NCBI GenBank assembly: GCA_964429815.1
Contig: CAYSCM010000001.1
Span: forward strand, 1 to 64,000
Direction of reading: 5' to 3'
Length of the DNA: 64,000 bases
Source: an uncultured Candidatus Saccharibacteria bacterium
Lineage (GTDB): Bacteria; Patescibacteriota; Minisyncoccia; Phycocordibacterales; CAYSCM01
This document shows positions 14,790 to 30,226 of this stretch, in pieces (positions within the stretch are counted from its first letter, which is position 1; each line of letters opens with the position of its first letter). Position numbers and translations under genes: made by a program. The notes below the pieces were generated by a model, which was given only the letters and a program-made list of their open reading frames with translations, had not been told where the DNA came from and made no database searches.

Positions 14790-14793
14790 ACCT

Positions 14794-15288: not shown

Positions 15289-15316
15289 AGACGTATGATA
15301 CACCTCGTGTACTTCA

Positions 15317-15348
15317 GAAAGAAAAAGCCGCTCGATTGTTCGAGCGGC
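15317..15348 (-). terminator. Rho-independent terminator (minus strand): GCCGCTCGA-acaa-TCGAGCGGC followed by TTTTTCTTTC
   Basis: Read from the reverse complement of 15317..15348. Confidence 0.6.
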
Positions 15349-15551
15349 AGCTGCAGCCGATCCTATACTACATTCCGGCCGGCACACCTCGAGGGGTGTG
15401 CGCGGTTTTTGGTCGGTCCAACACTGATCAGGTGTTAGGTTCGGGGGATTCCCGAAGCTTGATCGCCTGGGCGCACCGGTTAGATCGCGGGTGATCAAAT
15501 CCCGAAATCGCCGGCTAATTGTCCGCTTCCCGCCACTGCAGCCGAGACTAT

Positions 15552-18077
15552 TTAAGACCGACCTGTTTGTTTTTGCAAATTTCTCTGGTGCTCTTCAGAG
15601 TTTATGAGCCCGCAATTCTTGTACTTTTTGCCGGAACCACAGGGACAGGGGTCGTTGCGGCCTATTTTTTCCTCACTGCGACGCACCGACGCTGAGCTCC
15701 CTTTTGAACCATCTCCCGCGCCGATAAGCTGTGCCTGCTCGTGCACTTCCTGAAGCTTCACGTTCTCGTGCTTGAATGCGCCGGCACCAATGCCGGGGAG
15801 TAGTTCAACGACAGTATTCTCGACGGCCTGCTGCATTTCCTTGAAAAGCTGCGAGCCTTCTTTACGGTATTCGATGAGGGGGTCGCGCTGGCCGTAGGCA
15901 CGCAAATTCACGCTGCCGCGCAGGTAATCCATCACTTCGAGGTGCTCGACCCAGAGCATGTCGATAGTCTGGAGCATGAGGCGTCGCACCGTCGCGAGAA
16001 AATCCTTTTCGCCAAGCGCGGCCCTCTTCTCATCGATCACCTTATTTTTCTCTTCGTCGCCAAGGATGAACGCGCGAAGCTCCTCTTCGACTTCCGCTTC
16101 AGAACCGAGGAGTATTTTCCTGCGGCGCCCATACACGGCGGTGCGCTGGATATTGAGAACATTGTCATACTCGAGAACGTGTTTGCGCGCGTCGAAATTG
16201 AATCCTTCGATTTTTTTTTGGGCGCTTTCGAGCGAGCGCGTTATGAGACCATTTTGAATAGGCTCATCCTCCGGGATACCAAGCCGACCCATCATTTTTT
16301 TTACCGTCTCGGAGGCGAAAACACGCATCAAGGTGTCTTCCATGGAAACGAAAAACTGCGTCTCGCCGGGATCCCCTTGGCGCCCAGAGCGTCCGCGAAG
16401 CTGGTTGTCGATGCGGCGCGCCTCGTGCCGCTCCGTGCCGAGGACGTAGAGACCGCCGAGGCCCTTCACTTCCTCATACTCTTGTGTGGTCGCCGGGTTA
16501 CCGCCGAGCTTAATGTCGACACCGCGTCCGGCGAGGTTCGTCGCGATGGTCACCCGCCCCCTTTTCCCCGCCTGCGCGATTATTTCCCCTTCTTTCTCGT
16601 GGTTCTTGGCATTGAGGGCCTCGTGCGGGATGCCCTCACGGGTTAGATATGCGCTAAGCACTTCGTTTTTTTCAATGGACGCGGTGCCCACAAGGACCGG
16701 CTGACCCTTTTTGTGAAGCTCCTTTACCTTGCGGGCGGCAGAGGTGAATTTTCCGTGCTCGCTCTGGTAAATGAAGTCGTCGCGATCGATACGCTGACTA
16801 TCGACGTTGGTCGGCACCTCGACCGTCTCAAGCTTGTAGACGGTGTAAAACTCCTCCGCAGAGGTGAGCGCAGTACCTGTCATACCCGAGAGCTTCTCGT
16901 AGAGTTTGAAGTAGTTCTGAAACGTTATGGAGGCGAAGGTTCGTGACTCTTTTTGCACCTTGACCCCCTCCTTGGCCTCGATGGCCTGATGAAGACCCTC
17001 GCTCCAGCGCCGCCCCGGCTGGAGACGCCCCGTGAACTCGTCGACGATGACGACTTCGCCCTCGCGCACGACGTACTCCTTGTCCTTGTGGTAGAGCGCC
17101 TGTGCGCGCACTGCGGTCTCGAGATGGTGCACGTACTTGATGCCCCCTTCCGTGTATATATTCTCGATGCCGAGAAGCTTCTGCGCCTTTTCGATGCCGG
17201 AATCCGTGAGCGTCGCGGCCTTCATCTTCTCGTCCACCGTGTAGTCCTCCTCTGCGGAGAGACGTTTCGCTATCGTCGCGAAGGTCTGATAGAGACTTTC
17301 TGATTCCGTCGTCGGCGCGGAGATGATCAAGGGGGTTCGCGCCTCGTCGATGAGAATGGAGTCGACCTCGTCTATGATAGCGAAGTGGTGCGGACGTTGA
17401 CGGAGATCTTTCTCTTCGTACTCAAGGTTGTCGCGCAAGTAGTCGAAGCCGAACTCGTTGTTCGTGCCGTAGGTTATGTCGGCCGCATAGGCTTCTCGTC
17501 GCGTCGAAGGTCGCAAAAAATCGTAGAAAACTTTAAAGCTCCCGAGCTCATCGCGCTTTTGGTCCACTTCCTTGTGCCCTGGGTCGTACAAGTATGACGC
17601 TTCGTGGTTGATGACACCGACGGAGAGCCCGAGGAGGGCGTAAATCTGCCCCATCCATACGCTGTCACGGCGCGCAAGGTAGTCATTCACCGTGACGATA
17701 TGGACGCCTTTGCCGGTAAGCGCATTGAGGTACGCGGGGAGCGTTGCGACCAGGGTCTTCCCCTCGCCAGTGCGCATCTCGGCGATGGCGTGCGAATGGA
17801 GGACCATGCCGCCGAGAAGCTGTACATCAAAATGGCGAAGTCCCAAAGCGCGCTTTCCCGCCTCGCGGACCGCGGCGAACGCCTCGGGGAGAATGTCATC
17901 GAGCGTCTCGCCCTTGCGAAGACGCTCCCGAAAAAGCCCGCTCTTTCCGCTCAACTCTTCGTCGGTGAGCTTTTGGAGCGTAGGCTCAAGGGCGTTTATG
18001 CGCGCAACGGCCGGCTCGAAGCGCCCGAGCGTGCGCGCACTCTTGCCCTTGCCGAAAACGGAACCGAGAGAAAACAT
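15552..18077 (-). CDS. secA: Preprotein translocase ATPase SecA
   Basis: 841 aa; DEAD-like motor motifs, C-terminal zinc-binding CPCGSGKKYKNCG. Confidence 0.96.
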   Translation of the reverse strand: MFSLGSVFGKGKSARTLGRFEPAVARINALEPTLQKLTDEELSGKSGLFRERLRKGETLDDILPEAFAAVREAGKRALGLRHFDVQLLGGMVLHSHAIAEMRTGEGKTLVATLPAYLNALTGKGVHIVTVNDYLARRDSVWMGQIYALLGLSVGVINHEASYLYDPGHKEVDQKRDELGSFKVFYDFLRPSTRREAYAADITYGTNNEFGFDYLRDNLEYEEKDLRQRPHHFAIIDEVDSILIDEARTPLIISAPTTESESLYQTFATIAKRLSAEEDYTVDEKMKAATLTDSGIEKAQKLLGIENIYTEGGIKYVHHLETAVRAQALYHKDKEYVVREGEVVIVDEFTGRLQPGRRWSEGLHQAIEAKEGVKVQKESRTFASITFQNYFKLYEKLSGMTGTALTSAEEFYTVYKLETVEVPTNVDSQRIDRDDFIYQSEHGKFTSAARKVKELHKKGQPVLVGTASIEKNEVLSAYLTREGIPHEALNAKNHEKEGEIIAQAGKRGRVTIATNLAGRGVDIKLGGNPATTQEYEEVKGLGGLYVLGTERHEARRIDNQLRGRSGRQGDPGETQFFVSMEDTLMRVFASETVKKMMGRLGIPEDEPIQNGLITRSLESAQKKIEGFNFDARKHVLEYDNVLNIQRTAVYGRRRKILLGSEAEVEEELRAFILGDEEKNKVIDEKRAALGEKDFLATVRRLMLQTIDMLWVEHLEVMDYLRGSVNLRAYGQRDPLIEYRKEGSQLFKEMQQAVENTVVELLPGIGAGAFKHENVKLQEVHEQAQLIGAGDGSKGSSASVRRSEEKIGRNDPCPCGSGKKYKNCGLINSEEHQRNLQKQTGRS

Positions 18078-18159
18078 AGGAGGATACTAGCCTAAAACCG
18101 CCGCGCCTGCTAGACGCGGCGGTTCGGCCGACCCAGGGTTTAGGCGTAAATCAAACCCC

Positions 18160-18197
18160 GACACCAGAAACACAAAACGCCCTCCGGGCGTTTTGTG
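18160..18197 (-). terminator. Rho-independent terminator (hairpin ACAAAACGCCC-ggag-GGGCGTTTTGT, then T-rich on minus strand)
   Basis: Perfect 11-bp stem seen directly; sits immediately 3' of the micro-ORF 18211..18303. Confidence 0.55.
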
Positions 18198-18210
18198 TAG
18201 AGACATGGAG

Positions 18211-18303
18211 CTATCGTCTCCTGCGGCGCGATGACGTGCGGCGCTTGGTTGTGCGACGGCGCTTCGCAGTCTTCTTGGCGGCCTTTCGCCTTCGTTTTGC
18301 CAT
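18211..18303 (-). CDS. Candidate micro-ORF encoding a 30-aa highly basic peptide MAKRRRKAAKKTAKRRRTTKRRTSSRRRRR
   Basis: ATG at 18303-18301, TAG at 18213-18211, immediately followed by terminator 18160..18197; below the size cutoff of the ORF track. Confidence 0.3.
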   Translation of the reverse strand: MAKRRRKAAKKTAKRRRTTKRRTSSRRRRR

Positions 18304-18591
18304 GTGTGATGAGCATTACTGGTAAAACGTTGCACTCTCATCGACACAAGCGGATCGCCTGAATGAGAATGCTCTGGGCTCATACTCAGTATCGCAACTT
18401 ACGCGCCGCTCACAATGTACGCGCGAGAAATTGTGTGGATAACTTGCAAGCGCAAAAAGCATCGCGAAATCTCCGCACTATGCGCAGTATTTCTGACACC
18501 GATCTCAAAAAAATTGCGCCGACGTATGGGGAGCGGGTGCGTGCTCCATCGAAAGTCTAATGTGAGTGCCGCCGCTCCCCGTACCTAAGCA

Positions 18592-18624
18592 CAATCTTTC
18601 CCGTAAGTATGCCATAAACGAAAA
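18592..18624 (-). terminator. Rho-independent terminator (GGCCGCCC-tcg-GGCGGCC + TTTTCGTTT on minus strand) about 100 nt 3' of the ligase/TPR gene
   Basis: Seen directly. Confidence 0.55.
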
Positions 18625-18725
18625 GGCCGCCCGAGGGCGGCCGCTTTCGCAGACTTTTGATGGGCCGACACTGATAGTCGGTCACTCACGTCGATAACCC
18701 TAACATAGTCTCTAGGCTGTGGCAA

Positions 18726-20906
18726 TCACTGCGGATTCTTTCCTGCCCTGATGTCTCGAACGTAAGACTCTCCCTGGTCCTTGAAAGATGGATCGGCAGC
18801 TATCGCTTGCTCAAGGGCCACAATACTTTGCGCCCGGTCACCGGTCTTAAGGTAGAGCGCCGCGAGCGAAAGATAGAGCTGGACGTTTTTGGGTTCCTTC
18901 TCGATGCGGAGCCGGAGAATCTTTGCAGCGCGGTCATACATGCCGCGATCGTAATAGACCTTAAGGAGAAGATCGTTGTCGACTATAAGGCTCCCGAACC
19001 GCTCCGAGATGAGCCCATCTGCCTCGGCGGTCTGCCCCGCGTAGTAGAGCGCGGTCACATAATACATGCGCGCGGAGTCGAACATCGTGTCGAGTTCGAA
19101 CGCCCTCTTGAGAATATCGACGGACTCAGAAATCTTTCCCGCGTTAAGGCGGTTGAGGCCCATTTCAAAGAGTATTTGCTGCTTGTTGGGAGAAAGTTTC
19201 GAGGCTTGCTCGAGATACGGGAAGCTCTGGTCGAATTGGCCGAACGCGTCGAAGAGCGTCCCCATAAAAAGCGGGAAGCGGGCGTCCTGCGGCGTGAGCG
19301 TGATCTGTTTTTGCATCTCGGTCGCCGCCAGCGTCGCGAATTGTGCGACGACGTCCTGTTTGCCGCTTTGCGCCCCGTTGGCCGCGGCCTGGATGAGCTG
19401 CTCGCGGATCTCCTGAGTGCCGAAACCGCCCCGGTCGAGAGCCTTCTTATAGTAGGTGAGGCTCAGCGCCGCATTGCCTTGTCCGGGCGCAAGCGCGTGC
19501 AAAAGGTCGTTCCCCGCGAGAAGGCTCGGGACGTTGGCAAAGTAGACGACGAACACTGCCACGATAAGAATGAGTGGCGAGAGGACATTGCTGGGCGAGC
19601 CGGTGAGCGGCTCGACGCGGGCTATTTTCCCCGGCACGCCTTCCCTGCTGTGCACGTACGCGAGGAAAAGGACAAACAGAATATAGCTCGTGATGTTGTC
19701 GAACACGAAGATGTTGTGGATCAGGTAGCCAACCCACGCGCCCGTAAAAAGCACTCTCTGGATGGAGTCGAACGAAGAGCCGCGTCGCCACACGTAGTAG
19801 AGCGGCGAGAAAAAGAGCGCGAAGTAGGCGAGGAGGCCGAGCGCACCGCCGGCGATAAGCCAGTCAAAGACGATGTCGTGCACGCGATCGAACCATTGCT
19901 CCTGGCTGTAGAGGTGCGGATTGTAGTATTTATTGAATACGTAGTTGAAGCTCTCCTGTCCCCACCCGATGAGGACCGTTTTTGGAGACTCGCTGAACCC
20001 CTCCCATCCCATGGTCCAGATGCGGAAACGGGTCTGGCCGCTCTGGAGCGTTATAGAAGCGAGGCGCGAGAGCACCGGGCTCTCTTTTACGAACGACGTG
20101 TTCTTAACGAGCATGAAGCCTCCGACGAGGATAGCGATGACCGCGAGCCCGACGTAGGCGCTCTTACGCAATCTCGGCCGCTGCCGCTCAAAGAGAGCGA
20201 ATAGGAGAAGCGCGAACCCCGCCCCGCCGAGGAGACCGAGGATGGCCCCGCGTGTCGCCGTGTGGTAGAGGATAACCGTGAAAAATGCGGCGAGGATGCC
20301 GTACACTCCCTTGAGGGTCTTGTTGTCGGTACGAAAAAAAAGCAGAAGCGCGATGAACACATGGAAGAGCATGTAAATGGCCAGGTAGGAAGCGTTCCCC
20401 AGCGTCGCATCGAGGCGTGTTCCGCTCTGCTGGATGGCGAGTACGCCGAAGAGCTGCAGCGCCCCGTAGAGGGCTACAACGGTCGCCACCCCGAGCGACG
20501 TGTTCCACAAAGCGTTCCAGAGCTTCTTTCCATTCAGGACGCTTCCCACGACGAGGAAGAGTGCGCCGAGATGAAGGAGCGTGATGTACCCCTCCATGCG
20601 CTCGTAGTTGCTCCAGAAACTCTTGAACGCATTGGCGCTCAAGGCATCCGCGAAACCCATGACGAGGAGAAACGCCCCGAAGAGGACGGCTATCCAGGAG
20701 AACTTTGGCCGGTACTGCGGGTCCCTGAGCGCCAGAATAAGCCAAAGAGCGAAGATGATCTCCACGACGAAGCGTAGGAGAAAATTCTTTCCCGTTATGT
20801 ACGGAAAGAAGAGCGAGGTCGTTACAACAAGCGGGATAAACGGAACGATAAAAAGACCGACAAGTATAGCTGCCCGCAAGAGGCGATTAAAATCCATTGG
20901 CAGCAC
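18726..20906 (-). CDS. O-antigen ligase (Wzy_C)-like polytopic membrane protein fused to C-terminal TPR repeats
   Basis: 726 aa; about 12 TM helices then TPR-like helical repeats (YYKKALDRG..., LYLKTGDRAQSIVALEQAIAADP). Confidence 0.85.
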   Translation of the reverse strand: MLPMDFNRLLRAAILVGLFIVPFIPLVVTTSLFFPYITGKNFLLRFVVEIIFALWLILALRDPQYRPKFSWIAVLFGAFLLVMGFADALSANAFKSFWSNYERMEGYITLLHLGALFLVVGSVLNGKKLWNALWNTSLGVATVVALYGALQLFGVLAIQQSGTRLDATLGNASYLAIYMLFHVFIALLLFFRTDNKTLKGVYGILAAFFTVILYHTATRGAILGLLGGAGFALLLFALFERQRPRLRKSAYVGLAVIAILVGGFMLVKNTSFVKESPVLSRLASITLQSGQTRFRIWTMGWEGFSESPKTVLIGWGQESFNYVFNKYYNPHLYSQEQWFDRVHDIVFDWLIAGGALGLLAYFALFFSPLYYVWRRGSSFDSIQRVLFTGAWVGYLIHNIFVFDNITSYILFVLFLAYVHSREGVPGKIARVEPLTGSPSNVLSPLILIVAVFVVYFANVPSLLAGNDLLHALAPGQGNAALSLTYYKKALDRGGFGTQEIREQLIQAAANGAQSGKQDVVAQFATLAATEMQKQITLTPQDARFPLFMGTLFDAFGQFDQSFPYLEQASKLSPNKQQILFEMGLNRLNAGKISESVDILKRAFELDTMFDSARMYYVTALYYAGQTAEADGLISERFGSLIVDNDLLLKVYYDRGMYDRAAKILRLRIEKEPKNVQLYLSLAALYLKTGDRAQSIVALEQAIAADPSFKDQGESYVRDIRAGKNPQ

Positions 20907-20930: not shown

Positions 20931-22637
20931 CTATGCGAGGTTATGCTCGGAAAGGTAGGACAAAATGAGGTCGGCAGCTTCGATCGGTGAGAGGCCGCTC
21001 GTGTCAATGGTGAGCTCCGCGGCCTCGGGCGCTTCGTACGGGTCGTCAACGCCGGTAAGTCCCTTGAGGAGCCCCGCTTCGGCCTTCTTATAGAGGCCCT
21101 TAACGTCGCGCTCTCTGCATACTGCAAGGGGCGTCGCGACGTGTACTTCAATGTACGTGCCGTTTTTGCGGATAAGCTCGCGGTTCTCATCGCGCGACTC
21201 GCGGTACGGCGCGACCGCGGAACATATCGCGATGCCGCCGTGCTTCACGACTTCGTTTGCGACGAAACCAATGCGGCGGATGTTGGTGTTGCGGTCTTCT
21301 TTGGAAAAGCCGAGCCCTTTTGAAAGATGAAGGCGCACGACGTCGCCATCGAGGAGCGTTACCTTGCGGTCCTGGACCTCGAGGAGCTTGGTGTAGAGAA
21401 TGGTGGCTATGGTCGACTTTCCCGCTCCTGAGAGTCCCGTAAAAAAGATCGCGATACCGCGACTCTTAAGCGCCTGCCGATGTCCCCGTTTGAGCTCCTC
21501 GATAACCTCCGGGAATGAAAACCATTCGGGCACGGCCCCCTCTCCGCCGAGCATGCCGCGGAACTGCGTGCCGGAGATTTTGCCGATCTCTTCGCCTTCC
21601 CGTACTTCATTCATTGGCTTGTATCGTTTTTCAGCCACGGCATATACCATTTCCTGTGAGGTAATGATAGAGATACCGATATCTTTCTCAAACTTTTTCA
21701 CGAGCTCCTGTGCGGCATACGGTGCATAAAACGGTTTCCCTTCCGAATCATTGCCGGGTCCAGCGTGATCGCGCCCGACGATAAAGTGCGTGCAGCCGTA
21801 GTTGCGGCGAATGATGGCGTGCCAGAGCGCCTCGCGCGGCCCCCCCATGCGCATCGCGAGCTGAAGGAGCGAAAGGGTCGCGAACTCTTTCATGCGCGCC
21901 TCGTGGAGCTTTTTGTAGGCGCGCACGCGTGTGATGTAGTCGATGTCGCCTTCTTTCGTGAGACCGACCGTCGGGTGAAGGAGGATGTGGCCGCCGACGT
22001 TTTCAGCGGCACGCTTCATGAGCTCGAAGTGCGCGCGATGCACGGGGTTACGCGTCTGGAAGCCTATGACCTTCTCTACACCGTTGGCGCTGAAGTGCGC
22101 GCGAAGTTCTCGGGGTGTCTTGCGAAGCTCGGCGAAGTCGTGGCGCGTGGGAAGCTGGATGCCGACGACGGGCCCGCCAATGATGACCGGCTCAACCTCC
22201 CGCGTGAGGCGATAGACGCCGGGATGCTTCTCGTCGAGCGTACCGAACACCATCTGTGCCTCATGCGCCCGATCGGGCCGGAAGATGGATTCTACTTTCA
22301 AGATGGCGAGCGGCAGTCCGTACTTGTCCGCAAGCATTACCTCGTCGCCGAGCGCGAAGTGCGCATCCGCGATGTCGAGCGTGATCGGCATCGGGAATAT
22401 CTCCCCGCTGGGAAGTCGCATGGCGTTCACGACGCTCTTGTACTCCTCTTCGGTCATGAAACCGGAGAGCGGCGAGAACCCGCCAATAAGGATTTGCTCA
22501 AGATCGCACACCTGGTAGTCGGTGAGGTTAATGCTCGGGAGCGTCGCGGCGCGATCGAGGAGCGAGCGTTTCTGCACTGCGGAAGCGGGAAGTAGCTCCT
22601 TCACGTCAAGCTTAGCCTTGTGCGTGGTAGTGTGCAT
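20931..22637 (-). CDS. sat: Bifunctional sulfate adenylyltransferase (ATP sulfurylase) / adenylylsulfate kinase, PAPS synthesis
   Basis: N-domain QTRNPVHRAHFEL and HFIVGRDHAGPG; C-domain APS kinase P-loop FTGLSGAGKSTIA; start taken at Met MHTTTHKAKL (cat 22635-22637), ORF open to 22757. Confidence 0.9.
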   Translation of the reverse strand: MHTTTHKAKLDVKELLPASAVQKRSLLDRAATLPSINLTDYQVCDLEQILIGGFSPLSGFMTEEEYKSVVNAMRLPSGEIFPMPITLDIADAHFALGDEVMLADKYGLPLAILKVESIFRPDRAHEAQMVFGTLDEKHPGVYRLTREVEPVIIGGPVVGIQLPTRHDFAELRKTPRELRAHFSANGVEKVIGFQTRNPVHRAHFELMKRAAENVGGHILLHPTVGLTKEGDIDYITRVRAYKKLHEARMKEFATLSLLQLAMRMGGPREALWHAIIRRNYGCTHFIVGRDHAGPGNDSEGKPFYAPYAAQELVKKFEKDIGISIITSQEMVYAVAEKRYKPMNEVREGEEIGKISGTQFRGMLGGEGAVPEWFSFPEVIEELKRGHRQALKSRGIAIFFTGLSGAGKSTIATILYTKLLEVQDRKVTLLDGDVVRLHLSKGLGFSKEDRNTNIRRIGFVANEVVKHGGIAICSAVAPYRESRDENRELIRKNGTYIEVHVATPLAVCRERDVKGLYKKAEAGLLKGLTGVDDPYEAPEAAELTIDTSGLSPIEAADLILSYLSEHNLA

Positions 22638-22756
22638 TGAAATTCGATAGTAGCATGGTAGACGTTTTCTACAACCGGCCCACTGCGCCATGGTTACAGA
22701 CTTTTTGAATATAAAAGCGCCCGCACGTTGAAGTGCGGGCGCAGAGTCCTTATCCA

Positions 22757-23833
22757 TTAGGCGCTGAGGCCTCGTATCGCTGCGGCAGCGATCGTTCCCT
22801 CAAAGGGCCGGAGACGTTCCCGGACCATAGAAATGGGAGTCGGCACGAGTGCGAGGAAACGTTCGGCGATGAGCGGATCGTCCGCCTCCACGTCGGTACA
22901 AAGCCCGAGACGAACGAGCGGAGCCTGCGTCGCGCCCGCGAAATCCGCCTTGAGCATTTTTCGCGTCCGCTCGCCGACGACGGAAAGCGCCACCTTGCCG
23001 CTCACGACCGCTGCTGTGAGGGAGCTGGTAGCGCCGCCCGCAACGACCGCTTTCACCTGCGGCAGTGCGATGACCTCATCGGTCGTCGGCCCCACCGGAG
23101 AGGGTACAAGCCGTTCGCTGATCGGAGAAAAGCACTGACGCAAGTAGGTCCCGAAGGCCCTTCCTCCGTTTCCGGGCGCCGGTATTTTCTCCCACTTTGG
23201 GTGGAGCCGAACGCACAGACGCCAGGGTGCCGGAAGTTGTCGCATAAGCCGTATGGCTGCTGCAATCTGCTCCTCGGCCGCACCGTTCTCCGGCGAGCAA
23301 AACTCGCTGAAAACGATGACCGGCTTTTCCTTCCATTCCTTTTCCGCCCACGCAACGAGATCATCGCGTGGAATCGTGGGTTTGTCGGGAACGGCATGGC
23401 TGCCGACGATGACGGTCCGGAGGCTCCTGCCCCAGATCTTTTTCGCCTGCGATTCTCCGAGCAGGTCGGGCGTCAGAAGAAGGTCAGGGCGTTCGTAGCA
23501 ACGACTCGAAACTCCTGCTTGGTCCTCGAAACCGACCCAGGGGATCTTGCGCCGTGACGCCTGTTGCGCCGCGATGCTCTCCAGCTGCATCGGGGAGCTG
23601 AAGCCGACGGCAAGCGCGACGTGATCGAGTGGGCCACCGAAAAGCGGCCCGACGCCCTCGTCTGGATGTATCGTCTTATAGGATAGTTCCTGGCTTATCG
23701 CTACATCTGCACTGCGTCCGTGTTCTTCGCACCACAGTTCGCAGGAAATCCCTGCTTTGCGTAGGTGCGGGATCGTAGCGACTATCATCTTTGCGGGAGA
23801 GATATCCCGCACCAAAAAGATCACTCTTCCCAC
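22757..23833 (-). CDS. Hypothetical protein (possible GT-B-like / polymer-synthesis accessory protein)
   Basis: 358 aa, protein-like composition; antisense ORF 22733..23557 (+) is Arg-rich junk. Confidence 0.45.
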   Translation of the reverse strand: MGRVIFLVRDISPAKMIVATIPHLRKAGISCELWCEEHGRSADVAISQELSYKTIHPDEGVGPLFGGPLDHVALAVGFSSPMQLESIAAQQASRRKIPWVGFEDQAGVSSRCYERPDLLLTPDLLGESQAKKIWGRSLRTVIVGSHAVPDKPTIPRDDLVAWAEKEWKEKPVIVFSEFCSPENGAAEEQIAAAIRLMRQLPAPWRLCVRLHPKWEKIPAPGNGGRAFGTYLRQCFSPISERLVPSPVGPTTDEVIALPQVKAVVAGGATSSLTAAVVSGKVALSVVGERTRKMLKADFAGATQAPLVRLGLCTDVEADDPLIAERFLALVPTPISMVRERLRPFEGTIAAAAIRGLSA

Positions 23834-23995
23834 CGGTCACCTCCATACTTTGAAAAGAACGTCCTTAAAACAGTACCCTAGATTTTTCTTTTGTCAACAT
23901 TTCTCACTGTTTTGCGTCTTGAAACGCTGCATTGCATAAGCGTGTTTCTCTAGGTAGAGTGCATGTGGCTATAGGTTCTCAAACCGGAGGAGGTC

Positions 23996-24715
23996 ATGCC
24001 GAAGGGTAAAGCGCCTCCGATCGGAGGCATAAGTCTAGATCTCGAAGGGACGCTTATCGATCTGGAGGAATTCCACTTCGAGGCGTTCGTGAACGCCGCG
24101 TCGGAACACGGCTATACGATCACTGTCGACGAAATAGTAGGCCAGCACCCCTACGTGGTTGGTGGCGGTGACGAGCGAGTCGCCGAAGCGGTGCGAGAGG
24201 TATGTAATCTCGGACTCACTATCCAGGAAATCCGGCGCTCCAAGAATGCGCACTTCACGAAACTTGTTAACGGGAGATCCATCCGCCTACGTGCCGATGC
24301 CGAACGCGTCCTTGCGCAGGCACAGCGCCTCGGTCTGAAGCTCGCTATCGGTTCGTTGACCGATCGCGCGCGGGCGATGCACCTCATTAACGAGACCGGA
24401 CTTCTCCAGTACGTGAGGCCCGAGTACATTGTGCTCTTCGAAGATGTCGCCCACCACAAACCGGAGCCAGACGTGTACCTCGAGACGGCACGGCGAATGG
24501 GGATCGACCCGACCGAGCAGTTGGTGTTTGAAGATTCAAACACGGGCATCGAGGCGGCACGACGCGCGCGCTCTGCTCGAGTGGCAATCCCTATATTCCA
24601 GACAAAAGAATACCTTGAACGTCTCGTCGAGGCCGGTGCGTCGCGTATATTCGGTTCGTGGCGCGAAATTAATCTCGAGGGCCTTATCGAGAGCATTAAC
24701 GAGGGCAACCGCTAA
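23996..24715 (+). CDS. HAD-superfamily hydrolase (subfamily IA, beta-phosphoglucomutase-like)
   Basis: Motif I ISLDLEGTLID; motifs II-IV present; good SD GGAGGA 8 nt upstream. Confidence 0.8.
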   Translation: MPKGKAPPIGGISLDLEGTLIDLEEFHFEAFVNAASEHGYTITVDEIVGQHPYVVGGGDERVAEAVREVCNLGLTIQEIRRSKNAHFTKLVNGRSIRLRADAERVLAQAQRLGLKLAIGSLTDRARAMHLINETGLLQYVRPEYIVLFEDVAHHKPEPDVYLETARRMGIDPTEQLVFEDSNTGIEAARRARSARVAIPIFQTKEYLERLVEAGASRIFGSWREINLEGLIESINEGNR

Positions 24716-24733
24716 CCACGGATGCCCTTTTTC

Positions 24734-25192
24734 TTACTCACGTGGGTTTTCAAAAACGTCGATGTGTTCTTCGGGGACGGAAATTTCTATGTCTCTTCCG
24801 TAGACGATTCCCTCGATCTTCGGCGCAAGAAGTTCAATGACGCCACGCTCCTTCGTCTGTATATCCGAGGGAAGCGGGTAATAGATGTAACCTGAATAGG
24901 AACGACTCTCAAAGCGGATATCTACTGGAACCAACTGAAATGTTTCGGTAACTCTCGGATGCCATGTGAACGTCATCGTATAGTGGGGATCCTTCAAGCG
25001 AAACTGCCGGGGCGCGATCGTCATGTTGATCGTACCTGTGAAGAGAGACTCTGCTCCCGGAAGTCCTTGTTCGATAAAATACGGCATCTGTTGCACGACG
25101 GTCGCATTGAGGCCATCCTTGCCGGTTGCGCTCATGCCTGAGGCTATTTGATGGCCTTTTCGTATTTTTCCTTTGAGAACCCTTTTTTTCAT
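24734..25192 (-). CDS. DUF120 / CTP-dependent riboflavin-kinase-like domain protein
   Basis: LKGKIRKGHQIASGMS...TGTINMTI resembles the archaeal RibK G-x-V-x-x-G-x-G and GTLNV motifs. Confidence 0.45.
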   Translation of the reverse strand: MKKRVLKGKIRKGHQIASGMSATGKDGLNATVVQQMPYFIEQGLPGAESLFTGTINMTIAPRQFRLKDPHYTMTFTWHPRVTETFQLVPVDIRFESRSYSGYIYYPLPSDIQTKERGVIELLAPKIEGIVYGRDIEISVPEEHIDVFENPRE

Positions 25193-25206
25193 GTGCAGCG
25201 TGGATC

Positions 25207-25923
25207 CTACCGATTGCTTCTGCTGAGAATAAACTCGTAGTATTCCCAGTTCTTGGGAGTATCAAGACCGGTGTACGCTTCCTTCACGGGGTGCGCTAGT
25301 ATCTTGTCGCCGCTCATGTGGTTTTTTTCAAGGAGCGTACGCGGCCATATCACATCGGCCGTACCAATGTGGCGATATGCTTTTGGCAGAGCCTGGGTAG
25401 GCATATTTATAAAACCCTTCTCCCCGGCGATGGCAAGAATTGGGCTCAGAAGTCCATCACTAGAAATTTTATACATCTTATAGGGACTCGGCTCAGCCTC
25501 GATCACCGTGCGCACGGAATCTACCTCCGGGTGAGCCAGTAAAAGTTCGATTGCAGCATCTACATCCTCAACGCTCCGTAGGGGCGAGGTCGGCCGTAGC
25601 TGCACCACCACGTCTGGCACGTATTCCTCATTTTCCTTAAGCCAGACAAGTGCATGTTGAAACACGGGAAGATCGGGCGTCATATCCTCGGCCAATTCGG
25701 ACGGCCGCATAAAAGGAACCTCCGCCCCGTAGGACGTTGCGACGGCGGCTGTTTCTTGATCGTCGGTGGAGACCACGATGCGGTTAATGTGTTTGGATTT
25801 TTTTGCGTGTTCGATGGTCCACGCGATGAGGGGCTTGCCGCCAAGCACCTTTACGTTTTTCCGCGGAATACGCTTCGAACCGCCTCGAGCTGGGATGATG
25901 GCGATGATTTTCGAAGTTGCCAT
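25207..25923 (-). CDS. Acylneuraminate/ulosonic-acid cytidylyltransferase (CMP-sugar synthetase, NeuA/KdsB family)
   Basis: IIAIIPARGGSKRIPRKNVKVLGGKPLIAWTIEHA, VVSTDD. Confidence 0.85.
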   Translation of the reverse strand: MATSKIIAIIPARGGSKRIPRKNVKVLGGKPLIAWTIEHAKKSKHINRIVVSTDDQETAAVATSYGAEVPFMRPSELAEDMTPDLPVFQHALVWLKENEEYVPDVVVQLRPTSPLRSVEDVDAAIELLLAHPEVDSVRTVIEAEPSPYKMYKISSDGLLSPILAIAGEKGFINMPTQALPKAYRHIGTADVIWPRTLLEKNHMSGDKILAHPVKEAYTGLDTPKNWEYYEFILSRSNR

Positions 25924-26017
25924 AGGGTGATACTTACCCTAGGTACAACCGAGCAAAAAGTCAACGCGTTTTGAATGTTGCCTGGAAAAAGATATAACGT
26001 AGTCATCTTAACCGGCT

Positions 26018-27046
26018 ATGTCTCGTATTCTTGCGGCAACCAAAGACTCCCAATCGGCTCTTTTCGTGCAGGAAATCCTGCAGAGCCTTTCACCTAGTCA
26101 CGAGATCTTTGTCTTTGCAGAAGGTATGTCAAAAACGTTTTGGAAAAATGCGGGAGTTCCGCTCTCGTACGAAGCCGACGTGGACGGATCATCAGACTCG
26201 AAGCTCGCGTCGGAGCTTGACCGCATCAACCCGCGACTGGTTCTCACCAGCACCTCCTCCCCCGCAGGAATCGAGGCAAAAATCGCCGACCTCGCCAAAG
26301 CCCGCCGCATTCCCCTTGTGATATTTGCCGACATATGGGGTGGCGTGTCCCGGATCGGAGCTAAAGCGGACCTCCTTCTTGCCTTTGACCAACAGGAAGA
26401 AGACATAGAAGCGATAGCGTATCCGGATATCCCTCGAGTGCTTGTCGGCGACCCTATGATCAAAAAAATTAAAGATTCCAAAAACTCAATGCGCAAAGAA
26501 ATCCAAGATCACTTCGAACACCTCGACCAACGAGGCCTTCGCACCTTGCTTATCGTGGGACAAGGGGGTTCCTACACAGGGGCCATGCTCGAGGTGGCAA
26601 GGCAATCCCTTTTGCGCAGTTCCTCCTCGTGGCGCGTTATTCCGCGGGTGGTCCATCCGAAAAAACCCGACCCCACCCTTACCAATCTATGGAATAGCAT
26701 CGCGCAAGAACTCGGAGATACCGTGCTTACCATCGATGGCGGTTGGAGTACCGACGATGTGGCGATCTGCTCTGATGCTACTATTTCCATTTTCTCTACC
26801 GTTCTCAGGTATGCGGCGGAGAGCGGCAAGCTTGCACTCTCGGTGTCGACGCCAGAAACCCTTGCCGGCATGCTCAAATCCACCTCGATCCCCTACTATC
26901 CGCCGACTCGAATTGGATATGTGCGCGAGATTACGGGACCGGTAAATCTCGATGAAGAGCTCAAAGTGTGGCAGGCCATGGATCGCAAGGGAAGAATTCC
27001 CTTCTCCTCGACAGTGGCAAGGGAGGCAATCGAGGGTTTTCTTTAG
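26018..27046 (+). CDS. Hypothetical protein
   Basis: 342 aa, no confident family from sequence inspection. Confidence 0.45.
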   Translation: MSRILAATKDSQSALFVQEILQSLSPSHEIFVFAEGMSKTFWKNAGVPLSYEADVDGSSDSKLASELDRINPRLVLTSTSSPAGIEAKIADLAKARRIPLVIFADIWGGVSRIGAKADLLLAFDQQEEDIEAIAYPDIPRVLVGDPMIKKIKDSKNSMRKEIQDHFEHLDQRGLRTLLIVGQGGSYTGAMLEVARQSLLRSSSSWRVIPRVVHPKKPDPTLTNLWNSIAQELGDTVLTIDGGWSTDDVAICSDATISIFSTVLRYAAESGKLALSVSTPETLAGMLKSTSIPYYPPTRIGYVREITGPVNLDEELKVWQAMDRKGRIPFSSTVAREAIEGFL

Positions 27047-27549
27047 GATCGGCGATCAACCACGTTGGGTTTCGGAAAGTGCGTAAGCGGTATCGCTTCC
27101 TTGGCAGGAATTTTAATTATCCAAAGCCGTCCGGCTTGCCTCCCCGTCCAGTGCCGATGCGGTTGCCCTGCGGGGATAAACAGAATATCCCCGGCACCGA
27201 CCGTATACGTCGTGCCGCCTTGTATTCCGTTTGCCCGAAGTTCCAGCTCGTTGGTGCTGCCGTCCTCCCTCCGGCGCACAAACACCTCCGTGGGAGTGCC
27301 ACCCACTTCAAAGTGAACTTCCCCGTCTATGCCAATCCATAGGTCGCCTTCGTGACGATGGATTTCCACCGCATTATCTCCATCGGCGACGTTTTTTTCT
27401 ACGAGAATAGAGACCGGGGCCCCAAGCGCATCGGCTTGGCTCTTGAGAGGGTCTGGCTGATACTTGCCCTCCTTAAGCGCTTCGAGCGAGGGAGAAAGGG
27501 TCTCACGAGATACCGAAGCTTTGATAAAGGCGCAGGGCTGGAGTTCCAC
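27043..27549 (-). CDS. Cupin-domain protein
   Basis: 168 aa; cupin motifs EIHRHEGDLWIGIDGEV...GDILFIPAGQPH. Confidence 0.6.
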   Translation of the reverse strand: MELQPCAFIKASVSRETLSPSLEALKEGKYQPDPLKSQADALGAPVSILVEKNVADGDNAVEIHRHEGDLWIGIDGEVHFEVGGTPTEVFVRRREDGSTNELELRANGIQGGTTYTVGAGDILFIPAGQPHRHWTGRQAGRLWIIKIPAKEAIPLTHFPKPNVVDRRS

Positions 27550-27551
27550 GT

Positions 27552-28604
27552 TTATTTCCTGCGCAATTTTTTCTGAATGGGAATTTCCGCTTCGATGATG
27601 CGCTTAACGCCATCCCCAAAGGCCGCCTCCATCGAGCGCACATCCGCGACGAGCTGCTTAAACTCGGCTGGTTCCATGCTGGCCGACTGATCTGAACCAA
27701 ACATTTTTTTATCTAGGGTGACGTGGCGTTCAATGAGATGCGCACCGAGCGTGGCGGCGGCGACCGAGGTTGCAGTTCCCCGCTCGTGTCCGCTGTAGCC
27801 GACCACTACATCGGGAAACAGCCTTCGAAGGGTGTAGATCACCTTCAGGTTTAAATCTTTATCCTCAGAGGGGTAGGTCGAAACGGTATGAAGGAGGATC
27901 AAGTTTTCAGTACCGAGGAGATTGACTGCGGCGTGCACTTCTTCCATGGAACTCATGCCTGTTGAAAGAATGACCGGCTTTTTGCAAACATCCTTAATTT
28001 TTATGAGAAGCCCGTGGTCAGTGATGCTTGCTGAAGCAACTTTCAAGCAAGGCACCCCCAGTCGCTCCAGCACGTCAACGCTTTCCTCATCCCACGGCGA
28101 AGCGAACGCGAGGATCCCCTTCGCGTTTGCGTAGGAGAACAGGTCCCGGTACTCATCTTCCGTAAATTCGAGTGCCCACTTCAAGTCACCGTTGGTGCTG
28201 TCTTTAAAATCGCTCTTGCGCAGTCGCGCAACTGCCTCCTTTCCAAGAACACCCCGCTTGACTGCATTTTCGAGTACCGCGCGGTCAACAGGGCGCGGCT
28301 TTGCGAGTTCTTCGGCAGAATAGACGACCGGTACCGTGCGCTTTTGAAATTTAACGGCCTGTGCACCAGCTTCTACGGCCGCATCGATGAGGCGCTTTGC
28401 AATCTCGACATCCCCGTTGTGGTTTATGCCGATTTCGGCAATGAAAAAAATGGGATGCTCCTTCCCAACCGGGATACCTCCTACGTGGACGGTTTTCGGA
28501 ACTGGGGAGTGAAAACCGAGGAGTCGGCGCACGCTGCCTGAAATGCTCATGGGGGACACTATACTGCGCATATATATATGTTGTAAACGGTGGTTACTTA
28601 ACAA
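27552..28604 (-). CDS. N-acylneuraminate/ulosonic-acid synthase family (NeuB/PseI/LegI-like); alternative starts at 28571 or 28550
   Basis: IFFIAEIGINHNGDVEIAKRLIDAAVEAGAQAVKFQK, C-terminal SAF domain. Confidence 0.85.
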   Translation of the reverse strand: MLSNHRLQHIYMRSIVSPMSISGSVRRLLGFHSPVPKTVHVGGIPVGKEHPIFFIAEIGINHNGDVEIAKRLIDAAVEAGAQAVKFQKRTVPVVYSAEELAKPRPVDRAVLENAVKRGVLGKEAVARLRKSDFKDSTNGDLKWALEFTEDEYRDLFSYANAKGILAFASPWDEESVDVLERLGVPCLKVASASITDHGLLIKIKDVCKKPVILSTGMSSMEEVHAAVNLLGTENLILLHTVSTYPSEDKDLNLKVIYTLRRLFPDVVVGYSGHERGTATSVAAATLGAHLIERHVTLDKKMFGSDQSASMEPAEFKQLVADVRSMEAAFGDGVKRIIEAEIPIQKKLRRK

Positions 28605-28695
28605 TAGACAACTCCGAGAGTCAACGCGAGGTTACACCTCCCTCCACAAATGGAAAGGCGCCGACGATTGCCCGTCGGCGCCCACGTGAAAGGCC

Positions 28696-30203: not shown

Positions 30204-30226
30204 TTCGGGGTTGCTCGAATCAGAAA

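Follow-up and report, generated by a model that had tools for sequence, protein, structure and literature searches.

CPR bacteria (Patescibacteria) are mostly uncultured episymbionts whose biology hinges on contact with the host surface, and to our knowledge almost nothing is known of the chemistry of their envelopes. We asked what a fused ATP sulfurylase/APS kinase (Sat/CysC) is for when it is encoded in a glycan locus of such a bacterium. Genes of this kind (sat, cysC or PAPSS) have been noted before in CPR genomes (PMC7906910, PMC12114108), where sat and cysC were tallied as sulfate reduction or sulfur cycling (PMC7906910). A preliminary description of the window, by which we mean the whole 64-kb stretch of DNA analyzed here, part of a contig of at least 502 kb, proposed that its sulfate activation is dedicated to glycan sulfation. 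Our results support that proposal, mainly through gene order in CPR relatives, and we consider it probable that a dispersed sulfation module serves a surface-glycan locus of about 45 kb in a CPR/Patescibacteria-like bacterium. The features on which this reading draws are collected in Table 1.

Table 1. Positions of the sulfation genes, their neighbors and the surrounding glycan island in the window.
Feature	Position	Strand	Basis or remark
Sat/CysC fusion (PAPS synthase), 568 aa	20931..22637	(-)	Pfam, NF004040, 2gks alignment
Sat/CysC, PUA_2 domain	~22155..22601
Sat/CysC, ATP sulfurylase domain	~21486..22130
Sat/CysC, APS kinase domain	~21003..21461
Intrinsic-terminator-like hairpin	22717..22742	(-)	10 bp, 9 GC, then TTTTATATT (T-run)
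Wzy_C (O-antigen ligase/polymerase-type) membrane protein, C-terminal TPR repeats	18726..20906	(-)	Wzy_C 58 bits + TPR families (Pfam)
ST1, heparan-sulfate-sulfotransferase-like PAPS sulfotransferase, 302 aa	37391..38299	(-)	Sulfotransfer_1, 3rnl
SIS-domain sugar-phosphate isomerase (GmhA-like)	38296..38931	(-)	SIS_2 59 bits (Pfam)
Zn-dependent alcohol/sugar dehydrogenase (ADH)	38928..39998	(-)	ADH_N + ADH_zinc_N; heads ADH-SIS-ST1 run
Wzx-type flippase (Polysacc_synt)	44216..45496	(+)	Pfam Polysacc_synt 62 bits; putative exporter
GT4 glycosyltransferase	59937..61073	(-)	Glycos_transf_1 + Glyco_transf_4 (Pfam)
ST2, Sulfotransfer_3-family, TPST/CurM-ST structural type, 268 aa	61070..61876	(-)	Pfam, AF2, Foldseek
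Glycan-biosynthesis island	22757..64000	(.)	Pfam + NCBIfam; candidate acceptor-sugar supply
Island members (1)			NeuB with cupin, two PseF/KdsB-like cytidylyltransferases, HAD phosphatases, two AAA_33 kinases
Island members (2)			two 2-hydroxyacid dehydrogenases, B12/radical-SAM enzyme, methyltransferases, ALS-like TPP enzyme, E1-beta-like protein
Island members (3)			TagF-like transferase, DegT aminotransferase, GT4s, C-methyltransferase, Gmd

Focusing on the enzyme itself, we found PUA_2 (145 bits), ATP-sulfurylase (259 bits) and APS_kinase (204 bits) domains of Pfam in one chain. The protein exceeded the cutoff of the NCBIfam equivalog NF004040, the Aquifex-type 'bifunctional sulfate adenylyltransferase/adenylylsulfate kinase' (779.4 bits against 669, covering residues 16-565 of 568), and its best match among solved structures was the Aquifex bifunctional SAT/APS kinase 2gks, aligned over the full length (E 1e-172). 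The motifs QTRNPxHRxH, GRDHAG, LDGD and the P-loop GLSGAGKST all aligned with 2gks. In an alignment of 25 Sat/CysC sequences, ATP-sulfurylase residues Q194, T195, R196, N197, P198, H200 and H203, together with G288, R289, D290, H291 and A292, were invariant, as were the APS-kinase GLSGAGKST (G401-T409) and LDGD (D430-D432). The kinase part also passed TIGR00455 (202 bits; cutoff 139) and, judged by its motifs, would be catalytically competent, unlike its counterpart in fungal enzymes, a regulatory domain that is degenerate. The CysN/CysC model NF004035 covered this kinase part only (181 bits; cutoff 715); the protein is a homo-oligomeric, Sat-type enzyme that carries a PUA-like domain, not a sulfurylase of CysD and the GTPase CysN. 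With NF004040 passed and every catalytic motif in place, the original call of a fused ATP sulfurylase/APS kinase holds. Its nearest relatives were CPR proteins (54-63% identical), and a profile search of genome contigs with the Sat/CysC alignment returned, among the matches listed, mostly non-CPR bacteria at 49-55% identity.

Two start codons have been assigned to this gene. The full ORF, 20931..22757(-), encodes 608 aa, initiation at 22637 gives 568 aa, and both versions are present in the public protein collection. The terminator-like hairpin falls within the 40-codon N-terminal extension of the longer ORF, and we therefore prefer the start at 22637. The same hairpin parts Sat/CysC from a GT-B gene upstream, while on the downstream side a gap of 24 nt leads to the Wzy_C/TPR gene. 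Given the terminator on one side and the short gap on the other, we treat Sat/CysC and Wzy_C/TPR as one unit, likely on one transcript. The Wzy_C/TPR protein returned generic TPR matches only in the PDB. The GT-B gene upstream, an ORF of 358 aa, was weighed as a concealed sulfotransferase or a stand-in for CysQ. We rejected this, since its fold is nearest to UDP-GlcNAc 2-epimerases and the terminator lies between it and Sat/CysC.

The co-occurrence of PAPS genes and sulfotransferases within one cluster has been described as a hallmark of sulfated polysaccharide synthesis (PMC11641403). That hallmark is present here, the PAPS-synthesis gene and the sulfotransferases lying among NeuB, cytidylyltransferases, GT4s, the TagF-like gene, Wzx and Wzy_C, and it is seen again in CPR relatives. 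Sat/CysC is 15 kb from ST1 and 38 kb from ST2, and because the module is dispersed in this way the linkage of sulfation genes is weaker in the window than in its relatives. Five window proteins that were looked up each represent a 90%-identity cluster of one or two members, and neither the Rfam scan nor the tRNA scan gave any match in the window. ORF 2..6871 (>2290 aa) encodes a giant Thr/Ser/Asn-rich candidate surface fiber.

We compared the locus with those of related organisms. The nearest named homologs of Sat/CysC and ST2 were Zambryski-, Kaiser-, Magasanik-, Woese-, Levy- and Paceibacterota proteins, and the order GatB-Obg-...-SecA-Wzy_C-Sat/CysC was common to the window and CPR contigs; by these nearest homologs and this gene order, the window comes from a CPR/Patescibacteria-like bacterium. 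Among seven 10-kb neighborhoods around CPR Sat/CysC homologs, six were glycan loci; one homolog (locus L085) had no obvious glycan context. A sulfotransferase lay no more than a few genes from Sat/CysC in three of the seven (L081, L083 and L086), a linkage read from precomputed Pfam labels, and a CysQ-like Inositol_P phosphatase stood right beside it in two (L086 and L087). L086 comprises NeuB/cupin, CysQ, Sat/CysC, sulfotransferase, methyltransferase, HAD, TPP enzyme and AAA_33; L083 comprises sulfotransferase, NeuB, Sat/CysC and, further along, SecA-Obg-GatB; and L081 comprises sulfotransferase, Sat/CysC and an FkbM methyltransferase. These three sulfotransferases form a third, divergent Sulfotransfer_3 lineage and were missed by tblastn with ST1 and ST2. 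At L088 and L089 the ST2 ortholog itself is directly upstream of Sat/CysC, with CysQ following, and the order Sat/CysC(-CysQ)-Wzy_C-SecA recurred in L084, L087 and L088. The CPR fusion is thus often found in a cassette with a sulfotransferase and a CysQ-like PAP phosphatase.

Across the broad ST2 family, linkage to Sat/CysC is enriched but far from universal. A sulfate-activation gene, defined as one scoring >150 bits against the Sat/CysC profile, occurred in the fetched DNA of 6 of 80 ST2-family metagenome loci, and in 4 of the 29 loci of at least 8 kb; one of the six may be a stand-alone APS kinase. An ST1 ortholog was located among GT4, DegT, TagF-like and radical-SAM genes (L091) and possibly shares one 38,599-bp contig with a Sat/CysC homolog, the contig sizes being equal. 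Outside CPR, the closest Sat/CysC genes among the matches listed have as neighbors a sulfate symporter, CysQ, UDP-glucose dehydrogenase, epimerases and a Wzx flippase.

Both genes initially described as sulfotransferases could be assigned to families. ST1 matched Sulfotransfer_1 (80 bits) and Sulfotransfer_3 (68 bits) in Pfam and, like ST2, scored far over the Pfam cutoffs. Among structures its best match was the bacterial sulfotransferase 3rnl (E 3e-30), with heparan-sulfate N- and 3-O-sulfotransferases next. With these it shares the Sulfotransfer_1 fold, the 5'-PSB PxK/RxGTT and the 3'-PB RNPxxRxxS, as well as a Lys-Glu conserved ahead of an 'FF' motif, although it has low identity to the animal heparan-sulfate enzymes (E 1e-9 to 1e-13). 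Its 5'-PSB loop, GPERTGTTW, has Arg where the heparan-sulfate sulfotransferases have Lys; the seven closest orthologs have Arg and more distant members Lys or Arg, the two residues interchanging within the family. In the 3'-PB, LRNPTERFFS, R117 and S125 are invariant, and K44-E45, at what we take to be the position of the 3-OST catalytic Glu, is invariant as well. ST1 therefore passed the check for 5'-PSB and 3'-PB motifs. By eye, neither a signal peptide nor a TM segment was obvious. An ATGA overlap joins the ST1 start to the stop of the SIS isomerase, which scored 75-95 bits with gmhA models, under their cutoffs, and whose own start overlaps the end of ADH by 4 nt.

ST2 scored 79 bits with Sulfotransfer_3 (cutoff 27). 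All 33 of the best Foldseek matches of its AF2 model (pLDDT 94.3) in the PDB share the fold of sulfotransferases that bind PAPS or PAP, retinol dehydratase accounting for two of them; the matches are fold-level, with TM 0.52-0.65 and 15-21% identity, the best being TPST1/2 and the CurM/OLS sulfotransferase domains. The family is marked by GxGHxGSTLL, E35, DSSK and VRDGR; a CxCG...C insertion carried by most members is missing from ST2 of the window. The 5'-PSB loop, GSGHSGSTLL, is present with His14 at the catalytic Lys/Arg position, and this His is kept in at least 90% of 33 homologs (Lys in one). Such retention argues against one-off decay, and the His appears to be a family-wide variant rather than a lesion. 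In the 3'-PB, VRDGRGVFSS, which follows the VRDGRxxxxS pattern of TPST1/2 and CurM/OLS, R136 is invariant; E35, 21 residues past the PSB-loop residue, and K114 in DSSK are nearly so. The loop-to-Glu spacing equals that of these enzymes, the loop residue and catalytic base of TPST2 being, we presume, R78 and E99. The motif check of ST2 therefore gave a divided result: it has Arg and Ser in the 3'-PB and, at the position of the TPST base, a Glu, but His stands for the catalytic Lys/Arg (Arg in the TPST and CurM/OLS enzymes), and sulfotransferase activity is for that reason not assured. The stop of ST2 overlaps the GT4 start (ATGA), and by coordinates an ST2 ortholog and a GT4 gene overlap by 4 nt in L090 as well. 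With the SIS-ST1 overlap, this bears out the proposed translational coupling of both sulfotransferases to sugar genes.

We considered acceptors other than a surface glycan. PAPS could serve to sulfate a scavenged membrane lipid or glycolipid (giving a sulfoglycolipid), some small metabolite or, with ST2 acting in the manner of TPST or RaxST, tyrosine residues in a peptide or protein that is secreted. We judge this unlikely. The closest structures to ST2 are indeed tyrosylprotein and CurM/OLS polyketide sulfotransferases, mycobacterial Stf enzymes also match it, and a GT4 with a sulfotransferase could equally make a sulfated glycolipid. At a TM of ~0.6, however, the structural likeness goes no further than the fold, and the context of ST2 is glycan rather than peptide or polyketide: its gene overlaps a glycosyltransferase gene, relatives carry the ortholog between sugar-nucleotide genes and Sat/CysC-CysQ-Wzy_C, and the window holds no RaxX/RaxABC-like or PKS genes. 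ST1, moreover, most closely resembles sulfotransferases that act on a carbohydrate, heparan sulfate.

Assimilatory use, in which a PAPS reductase and a sulfite reductase with genes outside the window would channel PAPS toward cysteine, leaving the sulfotransferases as minor users, is very unlikely. CPR bacteria are generally without amino-acid biosynthesis, which counts against it. A Pfam scan of the 64-kb window, covering all 59 of its non-overlapping ORFs that reach 90 aa (save SecA, recognized by eye), gave no match to PAPS_reduct, sulfite reductase or cysteine synthase, as the preliminary description had stated for the two reductases. PAPS reductase, sulfite reductase and cysteine-synthesis genes were likewise absent from all seven CPR Sat/CysC neighborhoods, and the two ST2-ortholog loci with Sat/CysC (L088 and L089) contained no assimilatory genes. 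Sat and CysC activities are the first steps of assimilation, and CPR surveys read sat/cysC accordingly (PMC7906910), but the informative neighbors of Sat/CysC are sulfotransferases, CysQ and glycan genes, and a survey of CPR MAGs found PAPSS and no sulfur-reduction genes (PMC12114108). The small-genome lineage of the window is probably without an assimilatory pathway. That ST2 binds PAP(S) but is inactive as a sulfotransferase and has taken on a different role, its PSB Lys/Arg lost to His in GSGHSGST and ST1 left as the sole sulfating enzyme, is highly improbable in view of the conserved R136, E35 and K114 and of the orthologs directly neighboring Sat/CysC-CysQ at L088 and L089, an arrangement that is intelligible only for enzymes that use up PAPS.

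Under the reading that we favor, glycan sulfation, Sat/CysC would convert sulfate and two ATP to PAPS, as its domains and motifs suggest, the ATP-sulfurylase domain yielding APS and the APS-kinase domain phosphorylating it. The apparently soluble ST1 and ST2 would, by their family membership, use PAPS to O-sulfate sugars, presumably on glycan intermediates that are activated by a nucleotide or linked to a lipid. ST1 may act on the product line of the overlapping ADH and GmhA-like isomerase genes, and ST2 may work with the overlapping GT4, beside a GDP-mannose-dehydratase and C-methyltransferase (6-deoxyhexose) branch. The Wzx-type flippase is a candidate for exporting the lipid-linked unit after its sulfation in the cytoplasm; the Wzy_C/TPR protein, whose position beside Sat/CysC is kept across CPR relatives, could then polymerize or ligate it. 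The by-product PAP would need hydrolysis, for which relatives could use the CysQ-like phosphatase encoded right beside Sat/CysC. No CysQ-like PAP phosphatase was found in the 64-kb window, and PAP would therefore be hydrolyzed by an enzyme encoded elsewhere in the genome or by another phosphatase.

The searchable literature yielded no relevant paper on sulfotransferases or sulfated glycans in CPR, Patescibacteria, Parcubacteria or Saccharibacteria, and CPR sulfation genes are already auto-annotated in public genomes. The suggestion that such sulfation is unreported in CPR therefore stands for the link between sulfotransferases and glycans, but not for the sat/cysC/PAPSS genes themselves (PMC7906910, PMC12114108). 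The context of CPR sat/cysC points to biosynthetic sulfation, correcting the habit of assigning these genes to sulfur cycling or sulfate reduction (PMC7906910). From the conserved grouping of a sulfotransferase with PAPS synthase and a PAP phosphatase by Wzy_C and SecA, we predict that many CPR bacteria pay ATP to sulfate surface glycans, which would mean a highly anionic coat. More speculatively, a coat of sulfated and strongly anionic glycoproteins might be common among CPR/Patescibacteria. Wzy_C/TPR would then be a PglL-like O-oligosaccharyltransferase and not an O-antigen ligase, CPR organisms not being known to have LPS, and would load sulfated glycans onto giant Thr/Ser/Asn-rich fibers such as that of ORF 2..6871, giving a mucin- or heparan-like surface that mediates host attachment; we regard this extension as decidedly unlikely. 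Were such a coat real, the 'sulfate reduction' genes sat and cysC of CPR surveys would in fact mark surface sulfation.

Known sulfation systems offer several points of comparison. Rhizobial NodPQ/NodH, known from the sulfated Nod factor, and the nodPQ-dependent sulfated surface polysaccharides combine a dedicated PAPS supply with carbohydrate sulfotransferases, and not with cysteine synthesis. NodPQ, however, is a GTPase-type sulfurylase (CysD/CysN-CysC) rather than a Sat-type fusion, and the acceptor of NodH is a lipochitooligosaccharide; ST2 matched the NoeE nodulation sulfotransferase model very weakly (29 bits; cutoff 500), and we claim no membership. Sulfated glycoconjugates had been called rare in bacteria, which understates the record: sulfated capsular and O-polysaccharides whose clusters contain PAPS genes and several sulfotransferases have been documented more fully in marine bacteria (PMC11641403, PMC11766843), including a sulfated CPS proven by NMR in Vibrio sp. 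KMM 8419 (PMC11641403) and a sulfated polysaccharide cluster in Cobetia marina (PMC11766843). PAPS genes and sulfotransferases in a polysaccharide cluster are thus already known in other bacteria, and as in these two clusters they lie here amid nucleotide-sugar, glycosyltransferase and export genes. Vibrio sp. KMM 8419 has extra CysD/CysN/CysC copies, ABC (Kps) export and a Gram-negative envelope, whereas the window has a single Sat-CysC fusion and Wzx/Wzy_C-type genes. The Aquifex aeolicus enzyme (2gks) shares its domain order (PUA-like, ATP sulfurylase, APS kinase) with the fusion described here; what sets the latter and its CPR relatives apart is that they sit in glycan loci with sulfotransferases.

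The preliminary description had proposed a PAPS-generating fusion enzyme, and profile searches bore this out. Sat/CysC joins PUA_2 (145 bits), ATP-sulfurylase (259 bits) and APS_kinase (204 bits) Pfam domains in a single polypeptide, and scores 779 bits (cutoff 669) against the NCBI equivalog NF004040, 'bifunctional sulfate adenylyltransferase/adenylylsulfate kinase'; judged by sequence, it is a member of this known family. Among solved structures, the bifunctional enzyme of Aquifex aeolicus comes closest (2gks; E 1e-172, full length). Aligned to 2gks, the sulfurylase motifs (QTRNPvHRaH and GRDHAG) and the kinase motifs (P-loop GLSGAGKST and LDGD) are intact, and neither set varies across 25 aligned sequences. 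This sets the kinase domain apart from the degenerate, regulatory one of fungal ATP sulfurylases. The ORF (minus strand, end 20931) is 608 aa long if its earliest start is used and 568 aa if translation begins at the ATG at 22637; both versions are recorded in a public protein collection. A hairpin of 10 bp (9 GC), followed by TTTTATATT, lies within the 40-codon N-terminal extension and just past the stop codon of the upstream gene. The shorter start is the correct one.

ST1, the first of two sulfotransferases, matched Sulfotransfer_1 (80 bits) and Sulfotransfer_3 (68 bits) in Pfam and aligns along its whole length with 3rnl, a bacterial sulfotransferase structure (E 3e-30); the next structural matches were heparan-sulfate N- and 3-O-sulfotransferases. 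The PAPS-binding motifs by which the initial assignment was to be checked are both present. The 5'-phosphosulfate loop, GPERTGTTW, has Arg at the usual Lys position, and the two residues are interchangeable across the family alignment. Invariant in that alignment are G19, K44-E45, R117 and S125, the last two belonging to the 3'-phosphate motif LRNPTERFFS. K44-E45 forms part of a 'PKE..FF' motif, a position that we take to be the catalytic Glu site of carbohydrate sulfotransferases.

For ST2, the same check held for the family (Sulfotransfer_3, 79 bits) and for the conserved 3'-PB motif (VRDGRGVFSS, with R136 invariant) but not for the 5'-loop, GSGHSGSTLL, where His replaces the expected Lys or Arg; this is its sole departure from sulfotransferase motifs. 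At least 90% of family members have the His, and one has Lys; we read the His as a lineage trait, not decay, and the His-type PSB loop as an enzyme-level variant. E35, nearly invariant, lies exactly 21 residues past the 5'-loop residue, presumably the spacing of R78 and E99 in TPST2, and a nearly invariant Lys lies within DSSK. ST2 is the more distant of the two from solved structures and, by sequence, matched only CurM-ST and TPST2 among them. Its AlphaFold model, built from 33 homologues (pLDDT 94.3), retrieved the PAPS/PAP-binding sulfotransferase fold in all of its best 33 Foldseek PDB matches (two being retinol dehydratase), among them CurM ST, TPST1/2, OLS ST, Stf9, Stf1, NST and Stf0, with TM ≤ 0.65. 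The structures closest to it, TPSTs and polyketide sulfotransferases, would suit a non-glycan acceptor (lipid, metabolite or protein tyrosine), especially for ST2, but we consider this unlikely given the glycan context of the gene. Sequence and model together make ST2 a likely active enzyme; an inactive ST2 is very improbable in view of family-wide conservation and the position beside Sat/CysC-CysQ in relatives. Across the ST2 family, the loop GxGH(S/C)GSTLL replaces the canonical PK/RxGxT. Most members also have a CxCG-x(6-7)-C insertion that may form a small metal site; it is deleted from the window's ST2 and from the two or three proteins nearest to it.

Translational coupling of both sulfotransferases to sugar-modifying genes, noted at the outset, was confirmed as two ATGA overlaps: a SIS isomerase gene runs into ST1, and ST2 runs into a GT4 gene. 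By eye, neither protein shows a signal peptide or membrane segment, and sulfation would therefore be cytoplasmic, where PAPS is made.

Comparative context provided the decisive evidence for the sulfation reading. Among named proteins, those most similar to Sat/CysC (54-63% identity) and to ST2 (38-46%) belong to Zambryski-, Kaiser-, Magasanik-, Woese-, Levy- and Paceibacterota genomes. We fetched seven CPR Sat/CysC homologues, each with 10-kb flanks, and found the gene order GatB-Obg-...-SecA-Wzy_C-Sat/CysC to be common to the window and contigs of this kind. The 501,704-bp source contig is thus well supported as CPR/Patescibacteria DNA, probably of a Paceibacteria-like member. A Woesebacteria neighbourhood (L086) reads NeuB+cupin, Inositol_P (CysQ-like), Sat/CysC, Sulfotransfer_3, methyltransferase, HAD, TPP enzyme, AAA_33, epimerase, GT2 and DegT, a set strikingly similar to the window's glycan island. 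Others hold Sulfotransfer_3, NeuB, Sat/CysC, MurB, SecA, ..., Obg, GatB (L083); Sulfotransfer_3, Sat/CysC and an FkbM methyltransferase inside a glycan locus (L081); NeuB, ABC, Sat/CysC, Wzy_C and SecA, with AAA_33, cupin, HAD_2 and B12/radical-SAM genes nearby (L084, Zambryskibacteria); Sat/CysC, Inositol_P, Wzy_C+TPR and SecA (L087, Paceibacterota); and GT4 genes flanking Sat/CysC (L082). Only one of the seven (L085) lacked obvious glycan context.

Neighbourhoods of the sulfotransferase orthologues gave a matching picture. Two (L088, and L089 of a Kaiserbacteria assembly) place the ST2 orthologue immediately upstream of Sat/CysC, then Inositol_P, with Wzy_C/TPR as the next gene in L088. In L090, a GT4 gene overlaps the ST2 orthologue by 4 nt, and three more sulfotransferase genes and a Wzt-type ABC exporter are present. 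The ST1 orthologue in L091 sits among GT4, DegT, TagF-like and B12/radical-SAM genes, and its contig equals in length (38,599 bp) the one that carries a Sat/CysC homologue, so that the two may be identical. Because sulfotransferase, Sat/CysC and Inositol_P adjacency recurs in these neighbourhoods, we conclude that a three-gene cassette (sulfotransferase, PAPS synthase, PAP phosphatase) recurs in CPR glycan loci. The window holds it dispersed: Sat/CysC is still beside Wzy_C/TPR, CysQ is absent, and ST1 and ST2 (beside GT4) lie 15 kb and 38 kb from Sat/CysC.

Two of these neighbourhoods held further features. L090 combines its four sulfotransferase genes with a weak sulfatase-like gene, GT4/GT2/GT11 glycosyltransferases and a STELLO-like protein, and probably makes a multiply sulfated O-polysaccharide. 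L082 carries, ~5-9 kb from Sat/CysC, an apparent diversity-generating retroelement (reverse transcriptase RVT_1 and a weak bAvd match), adjoining an LTD-domain protein and a TraG/TrwB-like coupling ATPase.

Linkage outside these contigs was enriched, yet not universal. Genes for sulfate activation (scoring >150 bits with the Sat/CysC profile) were present in the fetched DNA of 6 of 80 ST2-family metagenome loci, one of the six possibly a stand-alone APS kinase, and in 4 of 29 loci of at least 8 kb; by a rough estimate, chance would put a given single-copy gene of a 1-Mb genome within 10 kb in ~2% of cases or fewer. Among the matches listed, 8 of 80 mostly non-CPR genomic Sat/CysC loci had a sulfotransferase HMM match (3 strong). 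Sampled non-CPR neighbours included a sulfate symporter, UDP-glucose dehydrogenase, Wzx flippase, epimerases, TauE and CysQ. From these neighbours and sulfotransferase matches, we conclude that this fusion-enzyme clade often serves polysaccharide sulfation outside CPR too. The closest non-CPR fusions, among the matches listed, adjoin sulfation or polysaccharide genes, not cysH: SLC13-type sulfate symporter, Sat/CysC, UDP-glucose dehydrogenase in Rhodothermales; epimerase, Sat/CysC, Wzx, ..., ST2-like, ST1-like in Planctomycetota; and Sat/CysC, TauE, CysQ in Acidobacteriota.

Of the window's 59 non-overlapping ORFs with 90 aa or more, 58 were searched with Pfam; the remaining one, SecA, was recognised by eye. 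As first described, these ORFs contained no sulfate-reduction genes: PAPS/APS reductase, sulfite reductase and cysteine synthase families had no match, and a phosphatase of CysQ type (Inositol_P) and any recognisable transporter for sulfate were also missing. The window lacks 16S, tRNA and Rfam features as well. PAPS reductase and sulfite reductase were likewise absent from the fetched neighbourhoods of CPR Sat/CysC homologues and of ST2 and ST1 orthologues (L081-L091). That PAPS enters assimilatory reduction and not sulfation is thus highly unlikely, as every visible neighbourhood speaks against it, as does a CPR MAG survey with PAPSS but without sulfur-reduction genes (PMC12114108).

The mechanism we propose builds directly on domain content, catalytic motifs, gene overlaps and synteny. 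Sat/CysC would convert sulfate and two ATP to PAPS. ST1 would sulfate a sugar made or handled by the overlapping Zn-dehydrogenase and GmhA-like isomerase genes, and ST2 a residue that the coupled GT4 adds or accepts, with 6-deoxyhexose a candidate because GDP-mannose 4,6-dehydratase and sugar C-methyltransferase genes are adjacent. A Polysacc_synt (Wzx-like) protein would flip the lipid-linked unit, and the Wzy_C/TPR protein, likely co-transcribed with Sat/CysC, would then polymerise or ligate it; PAP removal is a step without a candidate gene in the window. The NeuB-sulfotransferase adjacency recurring in relatives hints, as a lead, that a nonulosonic-acid-containing unit is the sulfated one. 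It is rather doubtful that Wzy_C/TPR, which gave generic TPR matches only in the PDB, is a PglL-like protein O-oligosaccharyltransferase loading sulfated glycans onto giant Thr/Ser/Asn-rich surface proteins, for example the product of the giant ORF at 2..6871, as a mucin-like host-attachment coat.

Other genes of the window also stand out (table). The giant ORF had no Pfam match and is probably a surface fibre and candidate glycoprotein acceptor. It begins with an HTH-like stretch and one hydrophobic segment, is rich in Thr (18%), Ser (13%), Ala (13%), Gly (11%) and N-x-T/S sequons, and has internal DNA repeats of 159-300 nt (95-100% identical), local GC of 0.60-0.67 and strong GC skew. The 358-aa protein has only ~70 distant homologues among 1.8 billion representatives; its AF2 model (pLDDT 95.6) shows a GT-B fold with a conserved HP motif, nearest to UDP-GlcNAc 2-epimerases (MnaA, NeuC; TM ~0.64, 12-17% identity), and a novel nucleotide-sugar 2-epimerase that supplies NeuB and a GT-B transferase are both possible identities. 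The TPP enzyme (449 bits to TIGR00118, below cutoff), which recurs in L086, and the E1-beta-like gene, adjoined by a 189-aa ORF with no family match, suggest two-carbon branch or acyloin chemistry on a sugar, for which yersiniose-type branched sugars are presumably the model. NeuB and cupin are one fused protein in L086; in the window, their region also holds two AAA_33 P-loop kinases in divergent orientation, then two 2-hydroxyacid dehydrogenases, and this conserved set may make an unusual ulosonic acid. The large radical-SAM enzyme is of cobalamin type by weak NCBIfam matches to B12-binding P-/C-methyltransferases, has relatives with a B12-binding domain, and turns up again in glycan loci of CPR, close to NeuB, cupin and AAA_33 genes; in genomes so reduced, chemistry that depends on cobalamin would not be expected.

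Coordinates of features in the window and in fetched neighbourhoods (L handles)
Feature	Coordinates	Strand	Remark
Giant ORF	2..6871	-	>2290 aa, continues beyond window start
Wzy_C/TPR	18726..20906	-	
Sat/CysC	20931..22637	-	
Hairpin	22742..22717		
358-aa protein	22757..23833	-	no Pfam or NCBIfam match
NeuB-family synthase, then cupin	27043..30203		N-terminal ~130 residues outside Pfam NeuB match
Radical-SAM enzyme	34565..36307	+	580 aa; relatives L084 5445..7115, L091 1038..3083
ST1	37391..38299	-	
Acetolactate-synthase-like TPP enzyme	40597..42366	-	glycan island
Polysacc_synt (Wzx-like)	44216..45496		
Pyruvate-dehydrogenase E1-beta-like protein	48250..49401	-	glycan island
189-aa ORF	49447..50016	-	glycan island
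ST2	61070..61876	-	
L090 locus	4675..20028		GCA_054013255.1
L082 retroelement	16213..20641		GCA_964648335.1
Non-CPR Sat/CysC loci	L009 8042..12979; L013 8960..16163; L008 11660..13271		

The preliminary description held sulfated glycoconjugates to be unreported in such lineages. Our literature search found no paper linking CPR with sulfotransferases or sulfated glycans, but the activation genes had already been noted, sat/cysC tallied as 'sulfate reduction... transformations to sulfite' (PMC7906910) and PAPSS generically (PMC12114108). CPR sulfotransferases are already auto-annotated, e.g. 'sulfotransferase [Candidatus Kaiserbacteria bacterium]'. Sulfation in CPR, as proposed here, would be a useful reinterpretation of their biology involving no new principle, and is readily testable. 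Rhizobial NodPQ/NodH is the classical case of PAPS supply paired with a sulfotransferase. PAPS genes and sulfotransferases within a polysaccharide cluster are a hallmark of sulfated polysaccharide synthesis, as in the Vibrio capsule whose sulfation was proven by NMR (PMC11641403).
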